A DNA stretch of 64,000 nucleotides from an uncultured Lachnospiraceae bacterium (GCA_964562175.1 CAZLRV010000003.1:15001-79000), one strand, 5' to 3'. Positions 13,357 through 38,802 are shown, counted from the first letter of the stretch. Numbers and translations: made by a program. The notes: generated by a model from the sequence alone, not told the origin.

Positions 13357-13388
13357 CGTATGTGAATACTGTTTTTACGGGTGTTTTT

Positions 13389-14729
13389 ATGAAAAAAACA
13401 AAGATCGGATTCGTTTCTCTCGGCTGTACGAAAAATCAAATAGATGCCGAGCATATGATGTTTCTGCTCGACTGTGCGGGCTATGAGCTTGTTGCGGAGG
13501 AGAGCGAGGCGGATATAGTTGTAATAAACACGTGTGCATTTATAGAGAGTGCCAAGAAAGAATCTATAGAGAATATCATAGATATAGGCTGGCTGAAGGA
13601 AAATGCAAGGTGCAAAAAAATAATCGTGACGGGCTGTCTTGCCGAGCGTTACCGAGATGAGGTACTTGAGCAGATGCCGGAGGTCGATTGCGTTGTCGGA
13701 ATCGGCTGTAACGAGAACATTGTCGATATAATAGGTCGTGTGTGCGAAGGCGAGCGTTTTTCATGCTACGACGAAAAGGAAAAATTGACTCTCGGCGGCG
13801 GACGTGTGCTGACAAGTCCGGGCTACAGCTCATATATCAAGATAGGCGAGGGCTGTGACAACCGCTGTACCTACTGTGCCATTCCGCATATAAGAGGCCC
13901 GTTCCGTTCCCGTCCCATGGAGGATATCGTTGACGAGGCGGTAAGTCTTGAAAACGACGGAGCCGTTGAGATCTCGCTCATTGCACAGGATACGAGCCGA
14001 TACGGCATAGACCTTTACGGTCATTACTCGCTTGCCGAGCTTATAGAAAAGATCACGGCGGCAACGAAAAGGGTCAAACTGAGATTGCTTTATTGCTACC
14101 CGGATAAAATAACGGACGAGCTTATAGTAGTGATAAAGAACAACGATCGTGTCGTTAAATATCTCGATCTGCCTATTCAGCACATATCGGACAAAATGCT
14201 CACGGCAATGAACCGCCACGGCAGCTCGGAACTTATAAAAAGCGTTATAGCAAAGCTGAGAAATAGTATCCCCGATATTGTTCTGCGTACCACTGTTATT
14301 GTCGGCTTCCCCGGTGAGAGCCAAGAGGATTTTGAGCTTTTATGCGACTTTGTAAAGGAAACGAGGTTTGAACGCTTCGGCGCATTTACCTACAGCCGTG
14401 AGGAGGATACGGAGGCGTATGACCTGCCCGAGCAGATAGACGAGCAAACGAAGCAAGACAGATACGACCGTATCATGGCACTTGCCTGCGATATAAGCAA
14501 TGCGTACAACGAGTCGCGCCTCGGCAACACATACGATGTTTTGTGCGAGGGCTACGACGTGCCTGCCGGCTGTTATGTCGGCCGTACATATGCCGATGCA
14601 CCCGATATTGATTGCAAGGTGTTTTTCGATGTAGGTGGCAGACGAGGCTTGCATAATGAGGGCGATGTTGTCAGAGTCAAGATAACGGATCACGACGATT
14701 ACGACCTGATAGGTATATCCGTGAAATAA
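13389..14729 (+). CDS. rimO: ribosomal protein S12 methylthiotransferase
   Basis: MKKTKIGFVSLGCTKNQIDAE N-terminus, radical-SAM CDNRCTYCAIP motif and a TRAM-like C-terminus. The track's GTG start at 13362 was rejected because it lies at or upstream of the predicted TSS. Confidence 0.9.
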   Translation: MKKTKIGFVSLGCTKNQIDAEHMMFLLDCAGYELVAEESEADIVVINTCAFIESAKKESIENIIDIGWLKENARCKKIIVTGCLAERYRDEVLEQMPEVDCVVGIGCNENIVDIIGRVCEGERFSCYDEKEKLTLGGGRVLTSPGYSSYIKIGEGCDNRCTYCAIPHIRGPFRSRPMEDIVDEAVSLENDGAVEISLIAQDTSRYGIDLYGHYSLAELIEKITAATKRVKLRLLYCYPDKITDELIVVIKNNDRVVKYLDLPIQHISDKMLTAMNRHGSSELIKSVIAKLRNSIPDIVLRTTVIVGFPGESQEDFELLCDFVKETRFERFGAFTYSREEDTEAYDLPEQIDEQTKQDRYDRIMALACDISNAYNESRLGNTYDVLCEGYDVPAGCYVGRTYADAPDIDCKVFFDVGGRRGLHNEGDVVRVKITDHDDYDLIGISVK

Positions 14730-28813: not shown

Positions 28814-29155
28814 ATGAAAAGATTCATAACGCTGTTGCTTGTACTATCGTTATTTCTCACTCTCTGTGCCTGCAACTCAAGTAAAAATGACAACAGCATT
28901 GTCGGAGAATGGACAAGACAAGGACAATGCTATACATTTCACAAAAACGGCAAGCTGACGATAAACAACGAAAAATACTCATATAGCACCTCCAAAGGTA
29001 AGCTTACAATAAAAAATTCTGAAATATCACGTAGCTTTTATTATGTCCTAAGCGGACATAGCCTTTATATCGATGCCTTGGAATACGAAAAAGTCACCGT
29101 TGACCCCGCCCCCAAGCGTGAACTGCTCCATTATATCAAGAAATTCTTTTCCTGA
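28814..29155 (+). CDS. small hypothetical lipoprotein
   Basis: 113 aa with a signal peptide ending in the lipobox LTLCAC. A GGAGG RBS lies upstream. Confidence 0.6.
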   Translation: MKRFITLLLVLSLFLTLCACNSSKNDNSIVGEWTRQGQCYTFHKNGKLTINNEKYSYSTSKGKLTIKNSEISRSFYYVLSGHSLYIDALEYEKVTVDPAPKRELLHYIKKFFS

Positions 29156-31030: not shown

Positions 31031-31049
31031 GTGAATATCGCCCGATTGA

Positions 31050-31102
31050 CAAAAAATATTCCCGACAGATAGACCTGTACAGATCGCCCTGTCGGGAATA
31101 TT
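31050..31102 (-). terminator. strong rho-independent terminator closing the PqqD-giant-peptide operon
   Basis: 14-bp perfect arms aatattcccgacag (31055-31068) and ctgtcgggaatatt (31089-31102). A U-run on the minus strand corresponds to plus-strand A-run 31050-31056. It lies 13 nt after the stop of the 76-aa ORF. Confidence 0.8.
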
Positions 31103-31115
31103 TCATTTTATGAGT

Positions 31116-31346
31116 TTATGAGTTCACTATGACCGTGATCGTATGATAGCACGTTCCGTCGTACTCCGGACCCATCATTTCGCCGTAATCGCCTTCGCAT
31201 CCTTCTGTGGCAGAGTTAAATGCATTCCACTGTTCTTTTGCCATAGCTATCCAATCGTCTCCGCAGGATCCTGCGATTTTCGTTGTCAGCTCGAATTCCT
31301 CGAACTGTACCGTAGGAACAATATAAGCTTTTTTCATATTCTTCAT
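31116..31346 (-). CDS. 76-aa acidic, three-Cys peptide (candidate RiPP-like precursor or RRE ligand)
   Basis: A GAGGAG RBS sits 8 nt upstream, and the ORF starts 21 nt after the giant gene's stop. Sequence: MKNMKKAYIVPTVQFEEFELTTKIAGSCGDDWIAMAKEQWNAFNSATEGCEGDYGEMMGPEYDGTCYHTITVIVNS. Confidence 0.6.
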   Translation of the reverse strand: MKNMKKAYIVPTVQFEEFELTTKIAGSCGDDWIAMAKEQWNAFNSATEGCEGDYGEMMGPEYDGTCYHTITVIVNS

Positions 31347-31367
31347 TTCAACTGCTCCTCTCGGAAA

Positions 31368-34300
31368 TTATTCTTCAACCGTAATAGTCTTAACAACGTT
31401 CATGGGTGACTCTCTGCCGTCCTTGTCAAGTGCGGTAAACGTGTACTTGTAAGTACCCGCCTCAAGCACTCCGAGGTCAACACTCATCATCGCCTTTTCG
31501 CCGTAAGCTACCGTGTTCTGCGATACTATCTCAACTTCGTTGCCGTTTTCATCAACTGCCTTTACGCTCGTTGCGTTTGCACTTGCTATAACGCTTACGA
31601 CAACATTCTCGCCGTACTCGTATGCAACTGCCGCCGATACGGAATCGATCGTGATATTCTCATTGATCTGATATCCCTCGTTAGCCGCAAGCATTACGCC
31701 CATTACGCTCTTAACGATTTCCGCATCCAAGCTTGTCGCAACCGCACCGCCCTTTACAACGTCACCCAAATTGAATTCCTCAAGCGTACATCCCGCATAT
31801 TTAATGTTGGATACGCTGACAACGGAATCCTCATCGTCGCCGTTTCTGTCGAGCATTACGATAACGGTATACGAGCCGTCAACGTTGTTAATGCACTTGC
31901 TTACATCTATAGAGTGGTACATAGCCGTGTAAGAGGTTATCTTAGTCGAAGTAGCAGGTAAGGTCAATTTTTCGGTAGCTATATCGTAGCCGACATATTC
32001 ATACCAACCAAGGTCATTACCCGATGCCTTCTTTGCCTCTATCTCAAGCACTACATCCTCTACACTTACGCCGTCATTGGGAAGTACTCTGAATACCAAC
32101 GCATTTCTGTTGCCCATGAGGTAGACCTCATTGTTAGGACCGACATTCGCATAGCTGTAAGTGCCGTCGCTATCGGAGAACGACCATTCGCCGTCCTTAA
32201 GTTCATCCTTCCAATACGTGTCGATACGCTCAACAACGGAGTTACCTGCAGAGAAGCTTACCTGCGTTCCCGTTCCGTCGCCCGTAGGAACGAAATCAAC
32301 TATTCCTACCGTGGGATTGTTCTTAAGAATGTTTGCACGAAGCTCCTCGATAGTAACATTCTGTTCTTTATAATGGTTGGTAATATTACTGTCGTTCTTT
32401 ACCGGATCGTAAATTCTTACACCGTCAAGGTAGAATCTCGTACCCTTGCCGTTTACAGGCTTTGAAACGTAGATTTCAACCGTGTACTCGTTGTAAGGCA
32501 AATCACGTATGCTTATTATCGGCACCTGATCGAGATGTCCGTTTACATACTGCGTGATGACGATCTTCTGTTTTTCTATATCACCGTTGTTCTTTTTGAC
32601 AACTACACGTACCATTGCGGATGAAAGGTTCGTGAAGCTTATCAGCTCAAAGCCCGTACCGTTAAAGGTGAATGTTGCGTTCTTATTTGCTCCGCTGTAA
32701 TCCGTTGCGTCCGTGTACAGTGCCGCATATGTTCCGTTACTGAAGTTGTAGTTGTTACCTACACCGTCAAAGCCGCCGATACCTTTCTTGAAGGTGTAGC
32801 CGCCAAGACCTGTGTACCATTTGAACTGGCTGTTTTTTTCAATCGTGTCAACGGTCGTCGTATCGTCGAGGTAAGACTTATCATATCCGTAATTCTCGTT
32901 TTGATTCGAGGACTGAGTATTTTGTGTCGTACCTGTGACCTTGCCTGTGTTCAAGCCGTTACTATAAACTATCGAACCGATATTCTCCTCGTAATATACG
33001 ACATATGCAGGTACAAAGCTTATCTTCTTGTACATCTGAATACCGTATTTTACGGAATACTTTTGAGCGTTATCGGTAGACTGACAAGTTTCGTCGGTAA
33101 TACCTACCGCCACGTAAACATCATCCGAACCATGCAAGAACTTCGAGGGTGTGTAAGTCAGGGGCGTAGCAGCTGCGGCAGTCGAACCGGCAGTGCCTGC
33201 AAATGAACCGTATGTTCCGGTTTCACTGAAATTGCTCGTGTAGCCCTCAACCGTACCGCTTGTCGTAGCGGTGGGCGCACTCTTCTTGAAGCCCAATATT
33301 TCTCTAAGCTCGTCGCCGTTTGTCGACAAGCTCAACGTGTCACCACTGCCGCCCAAATAAGGCGTACCGTCTTTCTCACCGGGATCGGCATATACCGTAA
33401 CCGGCAAGCCGTAGTCAAGTACATACGTTACATCACTCAAGCCGTACGTAAATACCGTTACACCGTAAGGACCGAATTTCTGAACCTGCTGTGTAGTCGG
33501 GTCTTGGGCAATCAACGTAAAGAAGTATGACGTTGTACCCGTGTTCTTAACATTCGAGGTGACCTTAGTGTCTGAAATATTATATCCGTCTTGATATGCA
33601 CCCGAAAGTGTCGTACCCGCTGTGATCTTGTGATCTCCGCTCGTTATCTTGTTCTTGTTCGCATCACTGATGTAAACACCTATCGTGTTGTCTTTCTTCA
33701 ATGCTCCGTATGTCGAGCTTCCTATTCTCGTGCTGTCGCTTATTACATCCGTAATGCTGTAAGTACGGTTGTGGTCCTCCCAAAGGTATATCCACAGATC
33801 CGATATGTTTACAACGAACTGTGCGTTACCCTCAAGCGCCTTGTACTGTCCACCGCCCTGATCGAACTGTGAACGTACACTTACCGTATTTACAAATGTA
33901 TTTTGGTCGATATTTGACTGAGTAAGGTAGTATATAACTCCCTTGATCGTCATTTTTTGTCCCGACGTTATACCTTTCTTAAGTACAGATTTTGCACTTC
34001 CCAAATCGAGATTTGAGTAGGTATTGACCGTCTTGCCTGTCGAATCCGTTATTATTATTGTAAGCTCGCTGAGCTGTCTGTTTGTCGTGCTTCCGCCCTT
34101 GGGAGTATATGAACCAAGCTCACATCTCCATGAGGAATCGCTTGCATTGTCATATCCGAGCGCAAATCCGAGAGCCGAATCCGTAAACTGCATATATTCG
34201 ATCTTGTTACTCGTGTCCTTTGAAATGTTCTCTGCCGAGAAGGTATATTGAAGCTTGTCGGAATCCTGTACGTTGTCACCGAACTCCAGCTGCTCGCCTT

Positions 34301-37300
34301 CAAGATAGCAATCCTTTTCAACAGGCATATCCGGAGATGAAAGACGAATGTTTGTCTGTATTGCAAAGTTTGCCGCAATACCGTGACGCTCCATGTAGAA
34401 GAATCTGAACTCATAGCTCTCGCCCTCAACAAGTCCGAGCTTGTTCTTTACGTCGTTTACGTAAAGCTCAACATCCGTACGTGAGTGAGCGCCGCCTATA
34501 TCAAGCACAAGTTGATTGTTGATAAAGAGGTAAACGTCATCGTCTCCCATGAATCGGAAGTAAAGGTTATCCGCTTCGTGATAAACGAATGCCGCATGAC
34601 CTTCCATTGAGAAGTTGTAGTTAAAGCCGGTATATCTATCACCGAAAGGAGAGTTGATCGTAGTTGCATCCTCACCGAGATAGAAAGGATCCGTGTCGCC
34701 GTAGCCAAGCGCTGTTTTGCTTCCGCCCATTCCCTGCATTGAATTTCTGCTTGAACCCAAGGGGTTAAACATATAGTTATAGTCCGGAAGGGGTGATACT
34801 CTTGTTTGACCATTCTTTATCTTATAGTAAGGAGTCGAAACCGTCTGGGTATTGTAGATGGACTTGCTTTCCTCGTCGTATTTTGTGCCGGCAAATCCGG
34901 AGCTGAATGTGTAGTTATACTTACCGTTGTTATCGACGCTTCGTACAAGTGCGAGGTTGTTATAGTTGCTTATCTCCATGCTGTAGCCCGTGCCGGTAAC
35001 ATTTCTATTTTGGTCTTGACCGGTGACATAGAGGCTGTTGAGCATATAGAGTGCAACATCCATGCAGGTGAAGCTGCCCTTGGCGCCGTTTTTGAAATTG
35101 CTGAGATTGTAATTTCTGCTCTTGGCGGTATTGTAATCGCCTACTTCATAATGTGCATATGCACCGAACAGACCGTTTGCCGTGCTGTCATTGAGCTTTG
35201 ATCTGAGAAGTGCCGCAAAATCTTTTCCCTTACCGTAAAGCTCGTCGTTTACCTCGCCGATTATCATATTGTGGTGCAAGTAGCCCTTGGCATACGCTGA
35301 ATTCTGGGTGCCTTCCTTAAGTGCATAAGCTAAGACATTTGCCAAAAACTCAACCGTACCCTGCTTGTATACGGGCTTTCCGTTTACAAGTGTAGCCTCG
35401 GTAAGTCCCTGTACCGCTATACCGCGTATAAGAGTACCGTAGCTCGTATTAACACGATTGCTGACATTATAAGAAGTGGCGTGTTGCAAATAATTCTGAG
35501 AGCCCGGTCTTATCGTACCTGTGCCGTTAATACCGAATAGATACGCATCGTCGGTCTTCGTGAAATTAGCGGTATAGTTATCATTGCCGTTTCCTGTGGT
35601 TTTCTGCTCCAATGCAAGACCGAAAGCAATATGGTTGCTCCGCTGTTGTGCATAATCAACGACGGGGTTGTAGAAGGTAGCGTAAAATTTGCAATATGCT
35701 TTTTGCTCCTCTACGCTCTTGCTTGAACCGTCTTTCTTGGAATATTGCAAGAATGCGACCGCACCGCAATCGAGTGTACTGCCGTTTGAGCTTGAAACAT
35801 ATATTTGACTGCCCTTCCAGTTCATCGCTTTCAATTCAACGGCAGCTGTGTGCCATTGACCGTCATTTCTTACATCCGGTATCTCAAGTCTCATCGATGA
35901 TTCTATCGTAAAGTTGTCCCGTCTCGTCTCAACATTCAAATACAGCTTATCAGCCCCTGTTTTATAACGCACGTTTGCGTAGTATACGGCTTGGTCGTTT
36001 ACCGTACCCAAGTCATCCAAGGTCAGACCATTTCTATTGTAGGCATACAAGAATATCATTTGCTGGTCGTATTTGTCACGATATGTGTGTGAGTTCGCAT
36101 CACCGCCGCTTGACCAGCCCGCAGTGTATGTTCCTTCAAAATCGGCGTAGTTCATTGCCGCAACGGAGCATATCTTAAGAGTTCCGGAATAGTCGAGCTT
36201 AAAGCCATATGCATCTGAGCCTGTTGCGATCTTGATGAACAGATCGTGCCATTTGTTATCTTTATATATCTTATAGTCCGATGCACTTGATGCAATCGCG
36301 TTACCATTTGTGTCCGTATAACGTGCGGTTATGCTCGTAACATCGGAGGTCTTATAGCGGACTCTCATATATCTGTGCGTGCTGATTGTCAAAGTCTGTT
36401 GTTTACCTACCGCATTCCATTTCTTTGAAAAACCGTTCGTAAAGCTGTGATACGGGTAATAAGCATCGTCCGTTGCCATTTGACTGCCGTTATCGTTAAT
36501 ACATATGGCAACATATTGAATGTCAATGGTGCTGCCATTGTTATTCCCGTTATCGGTAAAGTCAAACCATATTTTTTTAATGTTGCCGGTCCAATTGGCA
36601 TTGCTTTTCATATTGAATACAAGATTGTGCCAATTTCCGTCTTTGTTAAGCGACTTTCCGACACGTTTTCCACCATCACGTCCACCGTCACCGTTTTGGA
36701 AGAATATACCCATATCGGACGCATTGGTATTTGAAGTTTTGTATCTGACAACTATACTTCCGTAGTTATCCGCCTTAAGTTCTTTACCTATGCTTCCGAA
36801 ATCGGCAAGAATGTAAGCATCTCCGTTTGAAACTTCTGTCTCAAATGTATAATAATCGCCGTTCGCATCGTATGTCGAACTGTATTTACCATCGGGATAA
36901 GAGGTGCCGTTTACATTCTTTGCCAATGTTACGAATCGAGTATACTCATAATTGTAATCGTATAATGCCTCGTTTTGTGAAACTCTGGCGGCTTTCGGGT
37001 CGATCTTACCGTAATCGCGGCGCAACACCTCATCCCTTGTTGCATTGTATTCTATCTGATATTTACCAAACCACATTTCGTTGAACTCAAAGAGCATACC
37101 GTCGGCGGCATAGTCTCTTATCGTTATGGGGAGGTAAATAGCGTCGTTCGTCGTTACCTGATTGTAACCGTTGACTCTCGCAACATCAGCTTCGTTTGTG
37201 GAATCATATGATTGAGCGGTGAAATTATCCAAGCACATCTCGGAATTTTCACCCGAGTCGCCGCGGCTTACAAAGCAGAAACGGCTGTAGTTACGGATAA

Positions 37301-38369
37301 GTGAATTGTCGACCGTTGTCAGCTCGATACCGCCGGCATCCTTTACGGAGCAGGTTCTGTAATACATACTTGTATCGTCTGTGATAGCAGCTTTTTCGGC
37401 AAAGGTTATGGTTTTTTCGTCGGCACCGGTCTGAGCCAAAAGGTGCGTCTTCATGCCGAGCGTACCGTAATTTCTGCCCTCGATGATAAAAAGCAATCTG
37501 CCGTTGAGATAGAATGTTATCGTTGCAAGGCTATTGTATATCTCTTTATTGCTCGACGGATTCAAATACTCACGACCGTTGTCAACTATTCTGTAGTCGT
37601 TCCACTGGGTAAGATCCTCCTGGACTTGGAAATTAACAAACACGTTGTCGACATATCTGTTCGAATAGCCGCTTCCGGTAAGTGCCTTTTTTATTACCAG
37701 TGTAAGTGTATGCTTACCCGATACCCAAAGGCCTATACCCGAGCCGCCGATGAATTTCTGGGTCTGCGTATCTCCTGAGCTTACAAGCGAATCGCTCTCG
37801 TAGTAGTTCAACGTAGCATAGTTAGGCTTTCTATACGCCTCAAAGTCTCCGGAGTCGCCTCTGAAAAAGAATGCGTTAGGGCTTGTGACGGATGTAACCG
37901 CCGATTTATACCGGAAGTTCAGCTCATAGCCCTGAGCTGCGTTTTTGTTGTTCGTTACGGCGTAGAAATTCGTTATCATCTGGAAATATTCATTTCCGTC
38001 GATCTTTAAATATTTCGAGCCGTCGGCACTGCCCTCCGAGGTAATGTAACCGGGGTTATTTCCCGAGCTTCCATTTGCTATAGTCGGAGTGAAGTAGTTC
38101 CAACCGCTTGCGCCGTGCGTTGCGTTTGATTTTTTTGTCATTATCGATTGTCCTTCCGCATCGCCGGCAAGATCGAAGGACAGATCTGCCCACTTGTCGT
38201 TATCAGAGTCTATAAAAGTCTTTGCGCTTGCGGGTCGTCCTATGGCTTCTCGTTCAAAGCCCGGTATCGTTCCGCTGTATGTATATGCAAGCATATCAAC
38301 GGGAAGCGATGTAGCGAGCATTATTGCCGTGAGGACACAGGCAAACAAGCGCAGCTTAAATCTCTTCAT
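31368..38369 (-). CDS. 2333-aa secreted giant protein with a fibro-slime/PA14-like domain, a LamG-like N-terminal region, and repeated beta-sandwich modules
   Basis: Strong RBS AGGAGG and signal peptide MKRFKLRLFACVLTAIMLATSLPVDMLA. Core FRFMGDDDVYLFINNQLVLDIGGAHS...YEFRFFYMERHGIAANFAIQTNI matches the fibro-slime (TIGR02148-type) signature from memory. I see no LPXTG, SLH, dockerin or C-terminal TM. Confidence 0.85.
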   Translation of the reverse strand: MKRFKLRLFACVLTAIMLATSLPVDMLAYTYSGTIPGFEREAIGRPASAKTFIDSDNDKWADLSFDLAGDAEGQSIMTKKSNATHGASGWNYFTPTIANGSSGNNPGYITSEGSADGSKYLKIDGNEYFQMITNFYAVTNNKNAAQGYELNFRYKSAVTSVTSPNAFFFRGDSGDFEAYRKPNYATLNYYESDSLVSSGDTQTQKFIGGSGIGLWVSGKHTLTLVIKKALTGSGYSNRYVDNVFVNFQVQEDLTQWNDYRIVDNGREYLNPSSNKEIYNSLATITFYLNGRLLFIIEGRNYGTLGMKTHLLAQTGADEKTITFAEKAAITDDTSMYYRTCSVKDAGGIELTTVDNSLIRNYSRFCFVSRGDSGENSEMCLDNFTAQSYDSTNEADVARVNGYNQVTTNDAIYLPITIRDYAADGMLFEFNEMWFGKYQIEYNATRDEVLRRDYGKIDPKAARVSQNEALYDYNYEYTRFVTLAKNVNGTSYPDGKYSSTYDANGDYYTFETEVSNGDAYILADFGSIGKELKADNYGSIVVRYKTSNTNASDMGIFFQNGDGGRDGGKRVGKSLNKDGNWHNLVFNMKSNANWTGNIKKIWFDFTDNGNNNGSTIDIQYVAICINDNGSQMATDDAYYPYHSFTNGFSKKWNAVGKQQTLTISTHRYMRVRYKTSDVTSITARYTDTNGNAIASSASDYKIYKDNKWHDLFIKIATGSDAYGFKLDYSGTLKICSVAAMNYADFEGTYTAGWSSGGDANSHTYRDKYDQQMIFLYAYNRNGLTLDDLGTVNDQAVYYANVRYKTGADKLYLNVETRRDNFTIESSMRLEIPDVRNDGQWHTAAVELKAMNWKGSQIYVSSSNGSTLDCGAVAFLQYSKKDGSSKSVEEQKAYCKFYATFYNPVVDYAQQRSNHIAFGLALEQKTTGNGNDNYTANFTKTDDAYLFGINGTGTIRPGSQNYLQHATSYNVSNRVNTSYGTLIRGIAVQGLTEATLVNGKPVYKQGTVEFLANVLAYALKEGTQNSAYAKGYLHHNMIIGEVNDELYGKGKDFAALLRSKLNDSTANGLFGAYAHYEVGDYNTAKSRNYNLSNFKNGAKGSFTCMDVALYMLNSLYVTGQDQNRNVTGTGYSMEISNYNNLALVRSVDNNGKYNYTFSSGFAGTKYDEESKSIYNTQTVSTPYYKIKNGQTRVSPLPDYNYMFNPLGSSRNSMQGMGGSKTALGYGDTDPFYLGEDATTINSPFGDRYTGFNYNFSMEGHAAFVYHEADNLYFRFMGDDDVYLFINNQLVLDIGGAHSRTDVELYVNDVKNKLGLVEGESYEFRFFYMERHGIAANFAIQTNIRLSSPDMPVEKDCYLEGEQLEFGDNVQDSDKLQYTFSAENISKDTSNKIEYMQFTDSALGFALGYDNASDSSWRCELGSYTPKGGSTTNRQLSELTIIITDSTGKTVNTYSNLDLGSAKSVLKKGITSGQKMTIKGVIYYLTQSNIDQNTFVNTVSVRSQFDQGGGQYKALEGNAQFVVNISDLWIYLWEDHNRTYSITDVISDSTRIGSSTYGALKKDNTIGVYISDANKNKITSGDHKITAGTTLSGAYQDGYNISDTKVTSNVKNTGTTSYFFTLIAQDPTTQQVQKFGPYGVTVFTYGLSDVTYVLDYGLPVTVYADPGEKDGTPYLGGSGDTLSLSTNGDELREILGFKKSAPTATTSGTVEGYTSNFSETGTYGSFAGTAGSTAAAATPLTYTPSKFLHGSDDVYVAVGITDETCQSTDNAQKYSVKYGIQMYKKISFVPAYVVYYEENIGSIVYSNGLNTGKVTGTTQNTQSSNQNENYGYDKSYLDDTTTVDTIEKNSQFKWYTGLGGYTFKKGIGGFDGVGNNYNFSNGTYAALYTDATDYSGANKNATFTFNGTGFELISFTNLSSAMVRVVVKKNNGDIEKQKIVITQYVNGHLDQVPIISIRDLPYNEYTVEIYVSKPVNGKGTRFYLDGVRIYDPVKNDSNITNHYKEQNVTIEELRANILKNNPTVGIVDFVPTGDGTGTQVSFSAGNSVVERIDTYWKDELKDGEWSFSDSDGTYSYANVGPNNEVYLMGNRNALVFRVLPNDGVSVEDVVLEIEAKKASGNDLGWYEYVGYDIATEKLTLPATSTKITSYTAMYHSIDVSKCINNVDGSYTVIVMLDRNGDDEDSVVSVSNIKYAGCTLEEFNLGDVVKGGAVATSLDAEIVKSVMGVMLAANEGYQINENITIDSVSAAVAYEYGENVVVSVIASANATSVKAVDENGNEVEIVSQNTVAYGEKAMMSVDLGVLEAGTYKYTFTALDKDGRESPMNVVKTITVEE
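34345..34640 (-). other. fibro-slime / PA14-like core (about aa 1245-1340 of the giant protein)
   Basis: GFNYNFSMEGHAAFVYHEADNLYFRFMGDDDVYLFINNQLVLDIGGAHSRTDVELYVNDV...GESYEFRFFYMERHGIAANFAIQTNIRL. Codons were verified against the DNA at 34321-34380 and 34501-34560. Confidence 0.7.
35745..36857 (-). repeat. three divergent protein-level modules of about 100-125 aa ('RYKT' modules) inside the giant protein
   Basis: Shared signatures are SIVVRYKTS...DGNWHNLVF, YMRVRYKTS...DNKWHDLFI and YANVRYKTG...DGQWHTAAV, with RYK at about aa 542, 671 and 801. Confidence 0.6.
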
Positions 38370-38472: not shown

Positions 38473-38739
38473 CTACTCAGTCAGCAGGCCTTTAAGTCTG
38501 AGCATACGCAGCATCTTTTCGATATCGTCCTCGGCTTGATCCTTTTCCACCTCGTACTCATCGCACAAGAGCCGCACAAGCTCATCCGTTGTAACATCCT
38601 CGCCCAAGCGTTGCATTATCAGCGCACCTGATTCGGATGTGGTGATAATACCCTCATACGGATCGGAGCATGAGTTTACGGCAACAAAAACATATTCTCC
38701 CGCTATCTTTTTCATAACGAGCTTTTGTCTTAATCGCAT
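38473..38739 (-). CDS. PqqD-family (RiPP recognition element-like) small protein
   Basis: 88 aa: KKIAGEYVFVAVNS...GIITTSESGALIMQRLGEDVTTDELVRLLCDEYEVEKDQAEDDIEKMLRMLRLKGLL. This fits the PF05402 pattern (bound strand, then a winged helix with a 'YdV..e.a..Dv..fl..L...gli' tail). An AAGGAGGG RBS lies 7 nt upstream. Confidence 0.75.
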   Translation of the reverse strand: MRLRQKLVMKKIAGEYVFVAVNSCSDPYEGIITTSESGALIMQRLGEDVTTDELVRLLCDEYEVEKDQAEDDIEKMLRMLRLKGLLTE

Positions 38740-38773: not shown

Positions 38774-38802
38774 ATTGTATCATACAAAATATAATTTGTC
38801 AA
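38774..38802 (-). promoter_or_regulatory. consensus-like sigma-A promoter of the PqqD-giant-peptide operon
   Basis: On the minus strand: TTGACA (38802-38797), 17-nt spacer, TACAAT (38779-38774). The -10 element ends 34 nt upstream of the PqqD-like ATG. Confidence 0.7.

Follow-up and report, generated by a model that had tools for sequence, protein, structure and literature searches.

The 76-residue acidic peptide encoded on the minus strand at 31116..31346 of the window, i.e. the whole 64-kb stretch of DNA from an uncultured Lachnospiraceae bacterium that was analysed here, is the product of a real gene and a member of a previously undescribed peptide family. It is probably a precursor-type peptide that serves as ligand of a RiPP recognition element (RRE; RiPP, peptide made by ribosomes and modified after translation) and whose function is linked to a giant secreted protein. 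Its gene is the last of a three-gene operon. The first gene encodes a stand-alone PqqD-family protein of 88 aa with an RRE-type peptide-binding domain (38473..38739, minus; PF05402, E = 2.4e-13), and the second the giant secreted protein of 2333 aa (31368..38369, minus), which was defined by translation, Pfam and NCBIfam scans as well as tblastn and hidden Markov model (HMM) matches to relatives.

The TAA of the giant gene (31370..31368) and the ATG of the peptide gene (31346..31344) are separated by 21 nt, and this gap holds a directly readable GAGGAG ribosome-binding site (31360..31355, minus, 8 nt before the ATG). Similar AGGAGG-type sites stand upstream of relatives' peptide genes. According to RNA folding, the operon is closed by an intrinsic terminator consisting of a long hairpin and a U-run (31047..31104, minus). 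The hairpin (31104..31053, 17+5 bp) reaches -29.5 kcal/mol (z = -5.4), and none of 200 shuffled sequences was as stable; it was absent from a simple terminator scan because its inner part counted as a loop beyond the 3-8 nt limit of that scan. The original prediction, made from the sequence alone, had described the open reading frame (ORF), the ribosome-binding site, the 21-nt distance, the terminator and an acidic product with exactly three Cys. All of these were recovered, including an exact translation with 12 Asp/Glu, 5 Lys, no Arg and the cysteines C28, C50 and C66.

A peptide family of gut and rumen Clostridia

Neither the peptide nor its closest homologue matched any model in Pfam and NCBIfam scans, even at E <= 10, and no description of the peptide family or its gene cassette was found in the literature, sequence motifs included. 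A single-sequence word-index search returned just two homologues, one identical copy and one 63% identical protein, and an exhaustive profile search added about 13 further small relatives. With a profile built from these, 579 homologous proteins (about 580 clusters) were retrieved at E <= 1e-3, all of them 74-100 aa long, unnamed or "hypothetical" and devoid of Pfam domains; the window peptide matches the family profile with E = 8e-27. To locate relatives' loci in species-representative genomes, a degenerate DNA pattern was composed by hand for the motif at the N-terminus, and all 42 matching stretches proved to encode full-length family members. These stem from metagenome-assembled genomes (MAGs) of Clostridia from animal guts (Oscillospiraceae, Faecousia, Lachnospiraceae, Avispirillum, Ruminococcus). 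In several MAGs there are two or three copies, of which part are accompanied by the cassette and part are not. Moreover, the ratio of nonsynonymous to synonymous substitution rates (dN/dS) against orthologues is 0.16-0.35, with synonymous sites near saturation. A chance ORF is disfavoured by this ratio, by the 579 homologues and by the 42 of 42 full-length pattern matches.

In an alignment of 107 family sequences, Y8, P11, C28, F43, C50, C66, Y67 and the C-terminal S76 are invariant, and F15, E16, F18, I24, A25 and H68 are among the near-invariant residues. The family can be described by the signature MKKxYxxPx(I/V)xFExFxLxTx(I)AGxC ... F ... C ... [N/D]GxCYH ... S-COOH over 74-100 aa, with the peptide gene 12-21 nt past the gene of a giant secreted protein with a homologous C-terminal region. 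The window copy fits this description and has every family-invariant residue; the majority of the family has four Cys and ends in LFNS. On the minus strand, translation and alignments place the C28 codon at 31265..31263, that of C50 at 31199..31197, the C66-Tyr-His stretch at 31151..31143 and the codon of the terminal Ser at 31121..31119.

Majority-residue conservation amounts to 0.76 for residues 4-28 against 0.38 for residues 29-61, where indels occur as well, and rises to 0.72 for residues 62-76. The division into a leader-like N-terminus (aa 1-27; 31346..31266, minus) and a core, as originally proposed, is thereby borne out. Within this leader only Y8 and P11 are invariant; position 13 is occupied by I, V or L (V13 in the window). 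YxxPxL is the core of the leader motif bound by lasso-type RREs, for which a Thr at position -2 has also been described (PMC10368454). The resemblance concerns the mode of RRE recognition and not membership in the lasso family.

The earlier observation that two of the Cys are soon followed by Asp holds at family level for one of them. C28 is followed directly by E or D in 89 of the 107 sequences and by D/E within three residues in 101 (about 35% expected), whereas the acidic context of C50 (GCEGD in the window) occurs in 55 of 107 and is not conserved. Stronger than these Cys-Asp contexts is the pattern [N/D]-G-x-C66-Y-H, with N, D or E three residues before C66 in 95 of 107 sequences.

Some candidate features of the peptide gene were rejected. 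A lipobox is incompatible with I-A-G-x-C, which has one residue too many and is not preceded by a hydrophobic h-region, and a Sec signal peptide was dismissed in view of the charged N-terminus. An antisense ATG ORF of 88 aa (31143..31409, plus) is a shadow ORF of the peptide gene with no support, and a terminator-like match at 31262..31275 (plus) is only a GGATCC-centred palindrome inside the gene.

Giant genes and cassettes next to the peptide genes

Three unrelated family members on long contigs were examined first, and HMMs from their proteins were scanned over all retrieved loci. The three share a canonical order of genes, i.e. giant protein (2356-2680 aa), peptide, a membrane protein referred to here as unkX, a protein labelled ScmC, a radical S-adenosylmethionine (SAM) enzyme (372-414 aa) and PqqD (86-87 aa). 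In 33 of the 37 loci with enough upstream sequence, the end of a homologous giant gene lies 12-20 nt upstream of the peptide gene, and in 26 of the 34 loci with enough downstream sequence, cassette genes directly follow the peptide gene. Giant-gene adjacency is the most constant feature of the peptide family, which supports the alternative, raised early on, of a partner of the giant protein; the close spacing points to translational coupling. When the neighbours of homologues were inspected as originally advised, radical SAM/SPASM and PqqD genes were met at family level (26 of 34), but in the subfamily of the window no radical SAM/SPASM gene was met within 10 kb.

The giant protein of the window starts with a signal peptide, and Pfam and NCBIfam place a PA14/fibro-slime domain at aa ~1250-1345. 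Over the last ~500 aa it is homologous to the giant proteins preceding relatives' peptide genes (tblastn, HMM), and a sequence search of the PDB with the giant protein gave no match. Giant proteins of cassette-type loci terminate with a brief conserved tail of basic/aromatic character, for example ...KTIKSLLGWLFK or ...NLLDKIFGWLFR (L010, L012, L019-L022, L026, L029, L039, L042, L044 and others), instead of which window-type giant proteins end in ...KTITVEE or ...KTIIIEE. The conserved tail could be a sorting or recognition signal.

Gene arrays of the type peptide-giant-peptide (L017, 77..7632) and giant-peptide-giant (L032, L063) also occur. Four peptides (L036, L041, L053 and L030) have no recognisable giant gene upstream. 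At the first three of these loci the cassette is absent as well; at L030 it is present, but the giant C-terminal region found no match in the 868 nt available. The MAG cow5.11 holds two cassette-linked copies (L018, L048) next to the orphan paralogue L053, and modification in trans is therefore plausible.

The relatives' radical SAM enzymes (~375-415 aa) show the CxxxCxxC motif and a C-terminal SPASM-type pattern C-x12-G-x4-C ... CxxCx5CxxCx3C. They start about 30 aa before CxxxCxxC and have no fused RRE. Many models of radical SAM/SPASM peptide maturases were matched, over the full length those of GeoRSP, ACGX and PapB, all far under cut-off (E = 2.7e-14 and 53 bits against a cut-off of 340 bits for PapB). 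The closest solved structures are BlsE, SkfB and PqqE. The PqqD proteins of the cassettes and of the window both have lasso PqqD chaperones as top NCBIfam matches, again under cut-off (35 against 70 bits). The window PqqD scores 65 bits against an HMM made from cassette PqqDs alone and 50.6 bits against the generic Pfam PqqD model; BLASTP of the window PqqD against one cassette PqqD gave no alignment. The membrane protein unkX (L010:10322-11191 and homologues), encoded between the peptide and the ScmC-like protein, begins with a transmembrane segment and continues, in many cases through a Pro/Thr-rich linker, into a ~200-aa domain whose invariant residues include G-G-I-T (usually YGGITYR). Neither Pfam nor NCBIfam contains a match to it, nor does the PDB, the latter searched with a profile.

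The P-loop protein of the cassette carries the precomputed Pfam label PF27840 ScmC and matches TIGR04249 weakly (23 bits, cut-off 125 bits). A PDB search with a single ScmC-like sequence gave no match, and a ten-member profile found HPr kinase/phosphorylase as best match, the alignment covering the HprK signature and P-loop (E = 6e-4). In lasso clusters, homologues of HPr kinase attach phosphate to the side chain of the Ser that ends the precursor, of which they recognise hardly anything else (PMC8498205). Because they do so, and because the C-terminal residue is Ser in 107 of 107 family sequences, the ScmC-like/HprK-like enzyme probably modifies the C-terminal Ser of the peptide. A literature search revealed nothing relevant on ScmC, SynChlorMet or SPASM combined with HPr kinase. 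Cassette loci (L010, L012 and the flanks of L014/L015) lie amid capsule/exopolysaccharide genes encoding a Wzz/ParA-type tyrosine kinase, LytR_cpsA_psr, CpsB, Polysacc_synt_2 and NTP_transf_5 proteins. Genes for NTP_transf_5 nucleotidyltransferases adjoin two cassettes; in some lasso clusters a nucleotidyltransferase glycosylates phospho-Ser (PMC8498205).

For the canonical loci, the following sequence of events may be proposed. The first ~27 residues would serve as leader, whose Y-x-x-P-x-(I/V/L) motif is bound by the PqqD/RRE protein, the product of the first operon gene in the window. The RRE would then pass the peptide to the radical SAM/SPASM enzyme, which may act on the invariant Cys scaffold, most likely at C28 with its adjacent acidic residue and at the [N/D]-G-x-C66-Y-H motif. 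After modification of the terminal Ser, the mature peptide could work together with the giant surface protein encoded just before it. In the window lineage, the peptide may still be an RRE ligand, with radical SAM modification provided from an unlinked gene or lost. From the gene associations and motifs we infer RRE-leader binding, the modification chemistry, phosphorylation of the Ser at the C-terminus and the functional link to the giant protein.

The subfamily of the window and the role of the peptide

The window peptide falls into a small 3-Cys subfamily of 10 clusters. In the window and the loci with identical copies (L004-L009), the order PqqD-giant-peptide lies between transketolase/TruB and MurE. 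L058 shows the same synteny with a 59% identical peptide. In L061 the order is giant-peptide-PqqD-MurE in a window-like neighbourhood (genes for cardiolipin synthase, HisRS and AspRS near by), PqqD having moved downstream of the peptide; the giant-peptide gap is ~390 nt there (L061:4503-4897), compared with 12-21 nt elsewhere, and PqqD stands directly before MurE. Other loci comprise giant-peptide followed by a histidine kinase and a response regulator on the other strand (L001-L003), giant-peptide without a PqqD called nearby (L059, L060), the giant-peptide-giant array of L063 and peptide genes 16 nt after a large gene (L064-L067). Identity to the window is 67% (L058) and 47% (L061) for PqqD, whose divergence roughly keeps pace with that of MurE; the corresponding values of the peptide are 59% and 43%, and the giant protein is 46% identical. 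Across species with MurE proteins 52-72% identical, PqqD, peptide and giant protein have all stayed intact. In the window lineage, just the PqqD, giant and peptide genes stay linked, without a local maturase.

Several observations weigh against an RRE-guided precursor. In the 3-Cys subfamily, neither the second Cys of the family nor the LFNS tail is present. HMM scans found no radical SAM/SPASM, ScmC-like or unkX gene in the 64-kb window, and no cassette-type radical SAM, ScmC-like or unkX gene lies within <=10 kb per side in the seven evaluable distinct contexts of the subfamily. Neither the window nor any cassette revealed a leader peptidase or an exporter, and the peptide is devoid of a signal peptide even though its giant neighbour is a secreted protein. 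Conservation spans the whole length of the peptide and not the leader alone, as would also suit a small structured partner. Finally, modification of the peptide is argued throughout by guilt by association. The original suggestion of an RRE ligand or modified peptide thus fares well at family level, given the cassette in 26 of 34 loci and the PF05402 protein of the operon, but is not matched by a maturase near the window copy.

It is possible, though not favoured here, that the peptide stays unmodified and acts as a small acidic partner to the giant protein, i.e. a subunit, an assembly chaperone or an inhibitor. C28, C50, C66 and H68 might then form a metal site or disulfides, PqqD would act only as a holding chaperone, and radical SAM chemistry would be irrelevant in the window lineage. 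The adjacency to the giant gene (33 of 37), which is kept without the cassette in the window, L001-L003 and L058-L067, would agree with such a role, as would the gaps suggestive of translational coupling, the extension of conservation to the C-terminus (C-Y-H, terminal Ser) and the lack of a maturase in the window. However, the strongest conservation resides in the leader-like N-terminus with its RRE-type YxxPx(I/V/L), the PqqD gene has been kept in the operon, linkage to a radical SAM/SPASM enzyme prevails in the family, and the peptide, unlike the secreted giant protein, has no signal peptide. In addition, no fold is predicted. AlphaFold2 models reach a mean predicted local distance difference test (pLDDT) of 61 and a predicted template modelling score (pTM) of 0.26 for the window peptide (107-sequence alignment), and a pLDDT of 58 and a pTM of 0.23 for a typical 4-Cys member (128-sequence alignment). 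A confident globular fold with buried Cys, which had been named beforehand as speaking against a precursor, was thus not obtained, low-confidence models being weak evidence.

QhpC, the gamma subunit of quinohemoprotein amine dehydrogenase and substrate of the radical SAM enzyme QhpD, is a small Cys-containing polypeptide that belongs as a subunit to a much larger extracytoplasmic protein and is not a free natural product. By analogy, the peptide may tentatively be regarded as a radical SAM-tailored small subunit or peptide-derived cofactor of the giant protein. The bond between peptide and giant protein would then be primary and would therefore survive in lineages without linked maturase genes, with the stand-alone PqqD possibly acting as the peptide's dedicated chaperone. 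In this scenario, the precursor-type and unmodified-partner readings merge. The likeness, an inferred analogy, is one of logic only. There is no sequence similarity to QhpC (no Pfam match at E <= 10), and dehydrogenase subunits, a protease and an ABC exporter are lacking here. The thioethers that QhpD forms in quinohemoprotein amine dehydrogenase are of the Cys-Asp and Cys-Glu types (PMC8326336).

A ranthipeptide precursor of the SCIFF type (six Cys within forty-five residues; CteA/PapA type), crosslinked between Cys and Asp/Glu and set free to act in signalling or as an antimicrobial, is unlikely. The N-terminus is loosely similar (K-x-Y-x-x-P-x-hydrophobic), and the acidic residue after C28 and the [N/D]xxC at C66 recall the Cys-Asp and NxxC motifs of ranthipeptides (PMC8326336). 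The pattern [N/D]-G-x-C66-Y-H is reminiscent both of the NxxC motif in the ranthipeptide NxxcA and of the Cys-Asp links in freyrasin (PMC8326336); this likeness may be a lead on the chemistry but is not a test of it. PapB is also among the full-length matches of the relatives' radical SAM enzymes, at 53 against 340 bits. Yet CteA has six Cys in 45 residues and a maturase, CteB, with a fused RRE (PMC8326336), whereas the window peptide has three in 76 aa and the RRE is discrete. No precursor model of NCBIfam or Pfam matched at E <= 10, no maturase, protease or exporter is found locally, and SCIFF loci are not characterised by an obligate giant-protein partner. The initial proposal of a ranthipeptide/SCIFF-like precursor was accordingly abandoned.

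It is more doubtful still that the ORF is a decaying, functionless remnant of a canonical cassette locus. The cassette has indeed been lost from the subfamily, together with one Cys and the terminal LFNS, but the ORF is intact, all invariant residues are present in the 10 subfamily clusters across species with MurE 52-72% identical, dN/dS is 0.16-0.35, the ribosome-binding site and terminator are retained, and the PqqD gene has been kept alongside.

A lasso-peptide precursor is the most improbable of the alternatives. Lasso PqqD (B1-type RRE) chaperones are the top NCBIfam matches of window and cassette PqqDs, Y8-x-x-P11-x-V13 is present, and the C-terminal Ser and the HprK-like protein mirror paeninodin-type clusters, but neither a lasso cyclase (Asn-synthetase-like) nor a B2 protease is encoded in the window or any cassette, the PqqD scores remain far under cut-off (35 against 70 bits), and the post-leader part comprises about 50 aa with conserved Cys. 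The full lasso leader motif is reportedly YxxPxLx3Gx5Tx, according to the RODEO work. The Gly at motif position 10 is replaced by E, D, N or S in the family, the Thr at -2 is absent, and the conserved Thr (T22) lies one residue out of register. Phosphorylated lasso systems of the paeninodin type share the leader core, a lasso-like PqqD, the C-terminal Ser and, with the relatives, an HprK-like P-loop protein, and differ by the radical SAM/SPASM enzyme, the long Cys core, the lack of cyclase and B2 protease and the missing remainder of the leader motif.

The precursor-type reading is best compared with RRE-dependent radical SAM systems. Like those of PqqA/D/E in pyrroloquinoline quinone formation, mycofactocin, sactipeptides and ranthipeptides, the system has a short peptide with conserved leader and Cys as well as a discrete PqqD of ~87 aa, and the relatives, but not the window, add a radical SAM enzyme with SPASM-type Cys pattern. 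In contrast, the family matches no curated precursor or maturase model at cut-off, the peptide gene is welded to that of a giant secreted protein, and the cassette adds HprK-like and membrane proteins without a protease or exporter; next to the window copy, a linked maturase is missing. The three types of component seen in the relatives recur in SynChlorMet (ScmC; ScmD, a PqqD; ScmE/F, radical SAM/SPASM enzymes), whose models TIGR04249, TIGR04248, TIGR04250 and TIGR04251 gave weak matches. Membership was rejected, since the scores fall short of the equivalog cut-offs (23 against 125, 20 against 100 and 75-84 against 400 bits); moreover, the taxa here are gut Clostridia, a giant protein and unkX are added, and the window has just the PqqD of the set. 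The system is probably of the RRE-dependent radical SAM peptide type and is unusual in its obligate giant-protein pairing, its invariant C-terminal Ser with an HprK-like enzyme and its RRE-only window lineage.

If this assignment is true, animal-gut Clostridia would possess a widespread, uncatalogued RRE/radical SAM peptide system of about 580 clusters, with multiple copies per genome. Its precursor would be tied to giant surface proteins, often in capsule/exopolysaccharide loci, instead of a transporter or protease, and radical SAM/SPASM chemistry would go along with an HPr-kinase-like enzyme as well as a Ser that invariably ends the peptide. Peptide modification would thus be linked to the biology of giant adhesin-like proteins, and the window variant, with PqqD and peptide but no linked maturase, could serve as a natural test case for the role of a stand-alone RRE.

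Chromosomal setting of the operon

A consensus scan revealed a promoter-like site upstream of the PqqD gene (38802..38774, minus; TTGACA, 17 nt, TACAAT, with TG; 11/12), which is a pattern match only. Another promoter-like site, for the next gene, MurE, lies beyond the terminator of the peptide gene. An Rfam scan across the operon gave no match. The flanks are of housekeeping type and encode MurE, cardiolipin synthase, histidyl- and aspartyl-tRNA synthetase (HisRS and AspRS), transketolase, TruB and Mfd. The window's single radical SAM gene (13362..14729, plus) has the architecture UPF0004, Radical_SAM, TRAM; as a candidate maturase it was rejected, being a MiaB/RimO-type methylthiotransferase gene 17 kb from the peptide gene. 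Between the cardiolipin synthase gene and MurE, a 113-aa ORF (28814..29155, plus) shows weak, sub-cut-off similarity to DUF5640/DUF4969 in Pfam.

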